From Escherichia coli (lineage in GTDB: Bacteria > Pseudomonadota > Gammaproteobacteria > Enterobacterales > Enterobacteriaceae), in NCBI RefSeq assembly GCF_003334335.1, contig NZ_QOWQ01000013.1: a stretch of DNA of 64,000 nucleotides; one strand, 5' to 3'. A program made the position numbers and the translations under genes. This document shows positions 61,638-62,288 of the stretch, piece after piece. Positions within the stretch are counted from its first letter, which is position 1; each line of letters begins with the position of its first letter. Under the pieces are notes generated by a model. The model was not told the DNA's origin. It was given only the letters and a program-made list of their open reading frames with translations, and ran no database searches.

Positions 61638-62288
61638 TTAATTTGATTTATTCGCATCCATCAGCGCTTTTAACTGCTCCGGCGTAAACGGTGGTTTGCG
61701 TCGGTGCAACATCGCATGGCAATTAGGGTACACAGGCAGCAAATCATTAACTGGATCCAGCTGGTAATCCTCTTTAATGGCTGACAGCGGCACCAGGTGA
61801 TGCACATGGATAAAGCCTTCAGCGATATCACCATAGATCTTCACCAGATCAACACCGCATACGTTGCACTGGCATCCATGATGTTCGACCGCTTTATCTC
61901 GGGCCTTTTTATCGCGTTCATAGCGGTTTACTGTCACCTTTATCGCCGCACCTTCAAGGTATGTCTCCTGCGACGGCAACTCATCCGGGAACAGAACGTC
62001 GGCTATGGGAGCCGCAGCGGCTTTATCCAGATGAATATGAAATCCCTGCTCTATGAGTAGCTTGACACATTTAGATTTTATTCCGCCGGTGAAATCCGCA
62101 GGGGTAAATTGCGTCCCCGTCATCAATGTCGCTGCGATGCCAGCAATCGCCTTCGAGGGGTAACGTCGGCCATGATATTCAATCTCATACAACCGCGCAG
62201 GCTGGAACTGATGAGTTTCTCCCGCATCCCATAAATGGATAGCTTCGATGATATACCGCCGCGGAAGATGATCAGGGAGTTTATTCAT
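61638..62288 (-). CDS. HNH-family endonuclease with uncharacterised N-terminal domain
   Basis: 216-aa ORF; C-terminal HNH signature CQCNVCG...HVHHLVPLS...N...CPNCHAMLH; N-terminal about 120 aa of unassigned fold. Confidence 0.75.
   Translation of the reverse strand: MNKLPDHLPRRYIIEAIHLWDAGETHQFQPARLYEIEYHGRRYPSKAIAGIAATLMTGTQFTPADFTGGIKSKCVKLLIEQGFHIHLDKAAAAPIADVLFPDELPSQETYLEGAAIKVTVNRYERDKKARDKAVEHHGCQCNVCGVDLVKIYGDIAEGFIHVHHLVPLSAIKEDYQLDPVNDLLPVYPNCHAMLHRRKPPFTPEQLKALMDANKSN

Follow-up and report, generated by a model that had tools for sequence, protein, structure and literature searches.

In the window, the whole 64,000-nt stretch of Escherichia coli DNA analysed here, a gene encoding a 216-aa protein occupies positions 61638..62288 of the minus strand (ATG start, stop included), as located from the ORF list and a RefSeq match. 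The gene, termed head-HNH below after its two domains, is convergent with nanS, whose stop lies at 61630, 8 bp away, and the chromosomal order reads fimB-nanC-nanM-nanS followed by head-HNH. On its upstream side, a ribosome-binding site (AAGGA, 62297..62301, minus strand), identified by reading the sequence, stands 8 nt from the ATG. The product is 100% identical to RefSeq WP_001037966.1, labelled ‘HNH endonuclease’. A protein search retrieves 1,054 homologues at E<=1e-3 (best 2e-144), mostly 205-230 aa long and distributed over Enterobacteriaceae, Shewanella, Sulfurimonadaceae and others, and the same 1.3-kb stretch recurs letter for letter in many complete E. coli chromosomes; the number of homologues and the identity of the region across genomes together indicate a real gene. 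An earlier note on this DNA had described a 216-aa minus-strand ORF just past nanS, and on both points it was correct. Its description of the surroundings as low-GC DNA does not hold, the GC content being 0.50 at 61500-61999 and 0.47 at 62000-62499, compared with 0.37 around nanC.

Divergent from head-HNH, on the plus strand at 62425..62574, lies the remnant of a second gene, annotated as a pseudogene in RefSeq and comprising about 48-50 codons of an EcoWI-family protein (SBD-HNH). Its start codon at 62425-62427 has changed from ATG to ATA, and homology with the intact gene stops at a BLAST breakpoint at 62568. The divergent intergenic region, upstream of the SBD-HNH gene, contains a perfect palindrome, TTGCGA-N6-TCGCAA, at 62384..62401. 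A promoter scan of this region gives no sigma-70 match on the minus strand and one on the plus strand, where 2.3 are expected from shuffles. Within the window, no methyltransferase gene is adjacent to head-HNH. Past the SBD-HNH remnant, beyond 62569, the DNA is a degraded island of IS66, CP4-type and DUF4942 remnants, so that the border of a prophage-like region, at which the gene had been placed, is an approximately correct description.

Two other parts of the window, distant from nanS, deserve a brief description. The E. coli immigration-control region is present at 7724-8635 (-), 8769-15347 (+) and 15966-18056 (-). Its genes encode a Type IV enzyme of the Mrr type (PADLOC mREase_IV, E=2e-173), the type I set hsdR/M/S, and a DUF262/GmrSD-like protein of 697 aa, which matches PADLOC Orf5/HEC-06 at E=5e-223 and no NCBIfam model at E<=1e-10. 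At 31436-36676 (+), a gene encodes a 1,746-aa inverse autotransporter adhesin (intimin/IatC-like); strain MLI104K2, which diverges from the window upstream of about 36.8 kb and otherwise matches it, lacks this gene.

The head-HNH protein consists of an N-terminal domain, a linker and a C-terminal nuclease domain. The N-terminal domain, at residues about 4-88 (62025..62279, minus strand), is the ScoMcrA_N ‘head’ (Pfam PF26345), an identification that follows from two observations. The precomputed PF26345 assignment is found on a 99%-identical homologue and on nearly all other homologues, and a profile built from 39 N-domains matches residues 4-92 of ScoMcrA (5ZMM) at E=2.8e-9, where the single sequence already matches residues 29-92 at E=1e-3. 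The fold is that of the ScoMcrA head: in the AF2 model the domain is compact and alpha/beta, with helices at residues 10-22, 45-57 and 73-80 and strands at 34-38, 41-44 and 84-87. Conserved positions are H26, F28, Y34, Y43-P44-x-K46-A47, G50, A52, F66, G68-G69 and C74, and the N-domains of the family are mildly basic (median pI 8.9). A Pfam-A release predating PF26345 gives no match to the N-terminal part, a scan of the whole protein with it returning a weak HNH hit only. The earlier note had found no assignable motif in about 120 N-terminal residues and suggested looking there for SRA-, PUA-, EVE- or YTH-like folds. None of these is present, the domain being neither SRA, PUA, EVE or YTH nor NEco, and it spans about 90 rather than 120 residues, since the sequence beyond residue 90 is mostly low-confidence linker.

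The linker, delimited by pLDDT and conservation, covers residues 89-122 (61923..62024, minus strand) and includes two motifs, FPDE and EG, as well as the beginning of the NRYERD segment. Its pLDDT falls below 50 at residues 92-104 and 115-122. The FPDE and EG motifs (residues 101-113, DNA 61950-61988) are conserved despite sitting in a low-pLDDT segment: in the family alignment E112 and G113 do not vary, and P101 and E103 hardly do. To judge from the model, this segment may function as a linear motif, or may become ordered only in a dimer or on DNA. As for the head itself, a crystal structure has existed since 2018 as part of ScoMcrA, in which the head is flexibly attached, mobile and free of dimer contacts, these being provided by the other three domains (PMC6224610); no later functional work on it was found in the literature. 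Residues 31-123 also weakly match the N-terminal region of PADLOC IetA (profile positions 27-119 of 395, E=0.002), so a head-like module in IetA is a possibility at the level of sequence.

The C-terminal domain, residues 123-216 (61641..61922, minus strand), is an HNH nuclease domain of the McrA type, with a beta-beta-alpha-Me fold, as indicated by alignments, Pfam, PHROG, PADLOC and Foldseek. Pfam HNH covers residues 141-197 weakly, at E=0.006, PHROG HNH models match the C-terminal half at best E=3e-7, the same half aligns with residues 199-269 of EcoKMcrA (6GHC) at E=0.018, and in PADLOC the protein weakly matches both a ScoMcrA-like and a McrA-like mREase_IV model. Foldseek aligns the domain with the HNH domains of ScoMcrA, Cap5, Cas9 and ZRANB3. 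All the family-invariant residues, C141, C144, H163, H164, N189, C190, H191 and H195, are present in the window protein. In the alignment, H163, H164, D182, H191 and H195, invariant or nearly so in the family, correspond to H228/H229, N244, H252 and H256 of EcoKMcrA, whose roles in metal binding and catalysis have been described (PMC6182155). The catalytic and metal residues of a McrA-type HNH (PF01844) are thus in place.

The structural zinc site is altered. Its first CxxC, C141/C144, is intact, and the second reads Y187-x-x-C190. At codon 187 (61728..61730, minus strand), TAC (Tyr) replaces the near-invariant TGC (Cys), a structural zinc ligand that aligns with the first cysteine of the second CxxC of EcoKMcrA (LCPNCH). 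Cysteine occupies this position in over 90% of the family, and in all six non-identical E. coli alleles sampled, WP_001037969.1 being one natural Cys187 allele; Tyr187 was seen in no haplotype but the one identical to the window. The earlier note read a canonical HNH motif ending in CPNCHAMLH. The domain is indeed there, and the actual sequence is PVYPNCHAMLH, so that with tyrosine in place of cysteine the HNH of the window protein is not fully canonical. In EcoKMcrA both CxxC motifs hold the structural zinc (PMC6182155), and in TagI the change of a CxxC cysteine to alanine drastically lowers activity, the natural variants tolerated being C, D or H (PMC6212794). By analogy, the nuclease activity of the Tyr187 allele is probably greatly weakened or abolished. 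The Tyr187 protein might nevertheless keep some function, as zinc sites with three cysteines and another ligand exist (CxxD in TagI), and a residual role is also suggested by the haplotype being intact as an ORF and widespread.

Across E. coli, the gene shows a mixture of retention and loss. Head-HNH is full-length in 1,239 of the 5,426 complete genomes, and in about 1,900 of them only its last 106 nt are left beside nanS, the deletion ending a few codons upstream of codon 187. The Tyr187 haplotype (100% identical) accounts for about half of the full-length copies (roughly 1,240) and is present on at least 1,000 contigs. Probes of 83 nt for the Tyr and the Cys allele each match exactly in E. 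coli, and both alleles are abundant in public assemblies, in proportions that are approximate given that the probes match full-length genes and 106-nt remnants alike. Conserved positions are substituted in other E. coli alleles (R122C or N121S), and frameshifted or N-terminally truncated variants exist. These substitutions, the frameshifts and truncations, and the 106-nt remnant are signs of relaxed constraint in E. coli. In the window, the islet as a whole is decaying, with the SBD-HNH gene truncated and deprived of its start and head-HNH carrying the Cys187 to Tyr change. The probable loss of a zinc cysteine, together with the loss of the partner gene, makes the window copy a likely fading remnant of a cluster directed against foreign DNA.

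The proteins in which the head occurs place it among restriction enzymes. An exhaustive search with a head-domain profile yields 3,723 cluster representatives (50% identity) at E<=1e-3, and partner domains were counted by a Pfam scan of the best 145 of these. The commonest partners among these 145 are nuclease domains of the HNH (33) and HNH_2 (20) types, followed by EVE (13), the PD-(D/E)xK-like nuclease domain NOV_C (8), McrB-type AAA_5 (7) and the STAND NTPase nSTAND3 (6); DUF3427, SRA and MrcB_N occur twice each and AspBHI_N once, and NUDIX is also among the co-occurring domains. The long head proteins score against McrB/LlaJI-like restriction models, and in them the head precedes the ATPase, where specificity domains are usually found. 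In Planctomycete and Chloroflexi members, the head is fused to a C-terminal NOV_C-like module. On sequence evidence, the head keeps company typical of modification-dependent (Type IV) restriction enzymes. A kinship with such enzymes had been proposed for head-HNH, and what remains of the proposal is the two-domain protein, the HNH C-terminus and the Type IV domain company; the suggested kind of reader does not, the N-terminal domain being neither SRA, PUA nor NEco.

Based on the behaviour of related enzymes, the head-HNH protein most likely works without NTP as a dimer joined through its HNH domains, as in EcoKMcrA, TagI, ScoMcrA and EcoWI. The head would probably supply DNA targeting by recognising a modified or otherwise non-self feature of the DNA, and the HNH domains would cut near the head-bound site, giving a Type IV-like restriction nuclease. 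Targeting is assigned to the head because it is the sole non-catalytic domain in these proteins of about 210 aa. Conversely, the head often accompanies another reader (EVE, SRA or SBD), and could on that ground be accessory or regulatory. That the head is an unrecognised sensor of DNA modification or of another non-self feature, and is enough on its own to direct a nuclease, is put forward tentatively, as a possibility we regard as somewhat doubtful.

The neighbourhood of the gene also bears on this reading. In E. coli FDAARGOS_144 the pair is intact, with head-HNH divergent from a gene for a 290-aa ‘phosphorothioated DNA-binding restriction endonuclease’ that scores 438 bits on NF045808 (cut-off 180) and whose SBD is homologous to that of ScoMcrA. 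McrB/McrC-family genes are often found beyond the divergent pair in E. coli, and Zorya II lies near the islet in some strains. McrBC-family genes, SBD-HNH and head-HNH together form a small defence islet next to nanS in E. coli. The defence setting suspected from the sequence is therefore well founded, with McrBC-family genes, a phosphorothioate (PT)-dependent enzyme of the EcoWI family and, in some strains, Zorya II. In E. coli EFF60 and XPF_3, type II Zorya (zorE, zorB2) lies at 3270-5651 of the respective loci and both nanS and nanM are truncated; from this arrangement, the nanS-distal junction appears to be an insertion hotspot for defence islands.

Outside E. coli, the divergent pair, about 135-180 bp apart, is found at unrelated chromosomal sites in several enterobacteria, namely Citrobacter farmeri, two further Citrobacter species, Enterobacter sp. 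JUb54 and Klebsiella aerogenes. In K. aerogenes, the two genes belong to an array (locus L016, 4260-6636) of Mrr_N-HNH (219 aa), SBD-HNH_2 (289 aa) and head-HNH (211 aa) that adjoins a type I R-M system, a compact set of putative Type IV enzymes, each with its own reader. In Enterobacter sp. JUb54 (L022, 8589-9863), the SBD-HNH ORF appears disrupted, running on into unrelated sequence past the first CxxC of HNH_2; this would represent another independent decay of the pair. A paralogue of head-HNH on an E. coli ICE (57% identity) has an SBD-HNH_2 gene 4 kb away, and in an Isosphaeraceae MAG an SBD-HNH_2 gene lies directly upstream of a head+NOV_C-like gene. Distant homologues (37% identity) are carried by conjugative plasmids of Klebsiella and Serratia. 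If the ScoMcrA fusion is counted as well, head and SBD genes show a recurrent association.

This association allows another reading, that of a split ScoMcrA in which head-HNH is an obligate or regulatory partner of SBD-HNH within a single PT-dependent system. The two proteins would form hetero-oligomers through their HNH domains, or the head would dock on the SBD, and the orphan copy in the window would be non-functional. Head and SBD do share one polypeptide in ScoMcrA (PMC6224610), and their genes recur as an adjacent divergent pair at different sites in E. coli, three Citrobacter species, Enterobacter and K. aerogenes, as well as in the looser ICE and Isosphaeraceae arrangements. Against an obligate partnership, the association is facultative. 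Six of nine enterobacterial species representatives lack an SBD gene within 10 kb, and none was seen in the fetched flanks of Pantoea, of Enterobacter sp. C2 and of a 334-aa relative. The head-HNH gene is autonomous in the sense of being found without SBD-HNH in most species sampled. Within E. coli either gene has been lost independently: some strains keep SBD-HNH intact with head-HNH deleted, as in genome L046, where an intact SBD-HNH stands beside the 106-nt head-HNH remnant (4002-4106), and the reverse is seen in the window and elsewhere. No head+SBD fusion occurs among the 145 closest head representatives. The biochemical record points the same way, EcoWI alone being a homodimer that restricts dnd+ plasmids (PMC7461809) and the mobile ScoMcrA head making no dimer contacts (PMC6224610). 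The facultative association thus favours two autonomous clustered enzymes over an obligate two-subunit system.

The intergenic palindrome also counts against a single system. In an alignment of the intergenic regions of seven loci from four genera (E. coli, Citrobacter, Klebsiella and Enterobacter) the palindrome is invariant and the rest of the region diverges. It lies 24-48 nt upstream of the starts of EcoWI-family SBD-HNH genes. Twenty of the fetched loci contain exactly one copy, in every checked case upstream of SBD-HNH or its remnant; the recorded copies include those in L003 (11647-11664), L013 (5883-5900), L016 (5846-5863), L022-L024 and L047-L051. The element is likewise found upstream of the ICE copy of SBD-HNH, 4 kb from the head-HNH gene there, and upstream of the remnant in the window. 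A regulatory element shared by the divergent pair was considered and rejected, as the palindrome tracks the SBD gene even at that distance. Because it follows SBD-HNH and not head-HNH, the palindrome is no evidence of co-regulation. No known regulator site was recognised in it, and its sequence and position suggest an operator or 5'-UTR hairpin of the SBD-HNH gene. Taken with the independent losses, these observations make the split ScoMcrA unlikely.

A role outside defence is judged equally improbable. Here the head would serve as a regulatory module that binds a protein or a ligand, and the whole protein would be a non-specific nuclease or toxin, a DNA-repair or regulatory factor, or, in the Tyr187 form, a dead nuclease that still binds DNA and is kept for some other purpose. 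The ScoMcrA head has no assigned function (PMC6224610), the head co-occurs with nSTAND3 (6 of the best 145 representatives) and NUDIX, the weak IetA match covers residues 31-123, and the Tyr187 allele persists intact and widespread, all of which would suit such a role. Against it, no conserved immunity or antitoxin gene accompanies head-HNH: the 70-aa convergent downstream ORFs of Pantoea and Sulfurimonadaceae and the 108-aa ORF of Klebsiella are mutually unrelated. Nuclease and modification-reader partners dominate the architectures of the head, and the neighbourhoods are R-M or defence islands. The remaining alternative, a homing- or packaging-type HNH carried by a phage or mobile element, or else a selfish nuclease that a prophage left behind, draws on the PHROG HNH matches to the C-terminal half and on the adjoining degraded island with its IS66 and CP4-type remnants, and is highly improbable, since among 50,697 phage records none matches the N-terminal domain (all eight matches cover the HNH half only, so the phage-encoded nuclease envisaged in the earlier note finds no counterpart), the gene occupies a fixed chromosomal site beside nanS in E. 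coli and defence or R-M neighbourhoods elsewhere, and those of its sequence relatives whose structures have been solved are restriction enzymes.

In conclusion, a head-directed, Type IV-like HNH nuclease, represented in the window by a decaying allele in a decaying islet, is the explanation we favour as a whole, with modest confidence. For the window itself the message is a modest one, that of a decaying defence islet beside nanS. For the family, the consequences depend on the head. If the head alone directs the nuclease, the head-HNH proteins of roughly 210 aa would be the minimal members of a large Type IV branch of about 3,700 clusters, and if it reads a mark, its pairing with SBD-HNH would place readers of complementary marks against the same class of invader. 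A reader fused to HNH is a well-known general plan, and reader-nuclease fusions are the main source of the modification-dependent enzymes used in epigenetic mapping, such as MspJI, AbaSI and EcoWI-seq. The family is already catalogued (Pfam ScoMcrA_N + HNH); what sets head-HNH apart is that the sole candidate reader is the head domain. As the head is widespread and occupies the specificity end in many architectures of Type IV-like enzymes, head-HNH offers the simplest setting in which to learn its ligand, and the natural Cys187 and Tyr187 alleles of E. coli provide a ready-made pair of an active and a probably inactive form.

Among characterised systems, the head is shared with ScoMcrA (Sco4631, PDB 5ZMM), the Type IV endonuclease of Streptomyces coelicolor that depends on PT and 5mC. 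ScoMcrA is 561 aa long and carries an SBD and an SRA between its head and its HNH, where the window protein has a linker of roughly 35 residues. Without SBD and SRA, the window protein is not a ScoMcrA orthologue, and the known ScoMcrA specificities sit in the very domains that it lacks. With the EcoWI family (NF045808; SBD-HNH_2, PT-dependent, Type IIM/IV), it shares the plan of a small two-domain reader-nuclease. The two differ in both parts, the reader being an SBD in EcoWI and the head in the window protein, and the nuclease HNH_2 (PF13391) in the former and PF01844 in the latter. Against NF045808 the window protein scores 17.4 bits, over the linker and the edge of the HNH only, and with a cut-off of 180 it falls outside that family.

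The nuclease half is of the same type as that of EcoKMcrA (e14 prophage, 6GHC), a two-domain protein of similar size with an HNH of the two-CxxC type and HH...H...H metal ligands. The window protein has no NEco, the 5mC/5hmC-binding domain of the EcoKMcrA family, and is therefore not an EcoKMcrA orthologue; the name ‘5-methylcytosine-specific restriction protein A’, which several databases assign to it automatically, has no support. Nor does it have a PUA-like or SRA beta-barrel reader. The same logic of a reader joined to HNH is followed by the Type IV enzymes TagI and ScoA3IV (SRA-HNH), by PUA/EVE-HNH and by Mrr_N/wH-HNH. Some of these readers meet the head directly, an Mrr_N-HNH gene belonging to the K. 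aerogenes array, and EVE and SRA sharing polypeptides with the head in other proteins.
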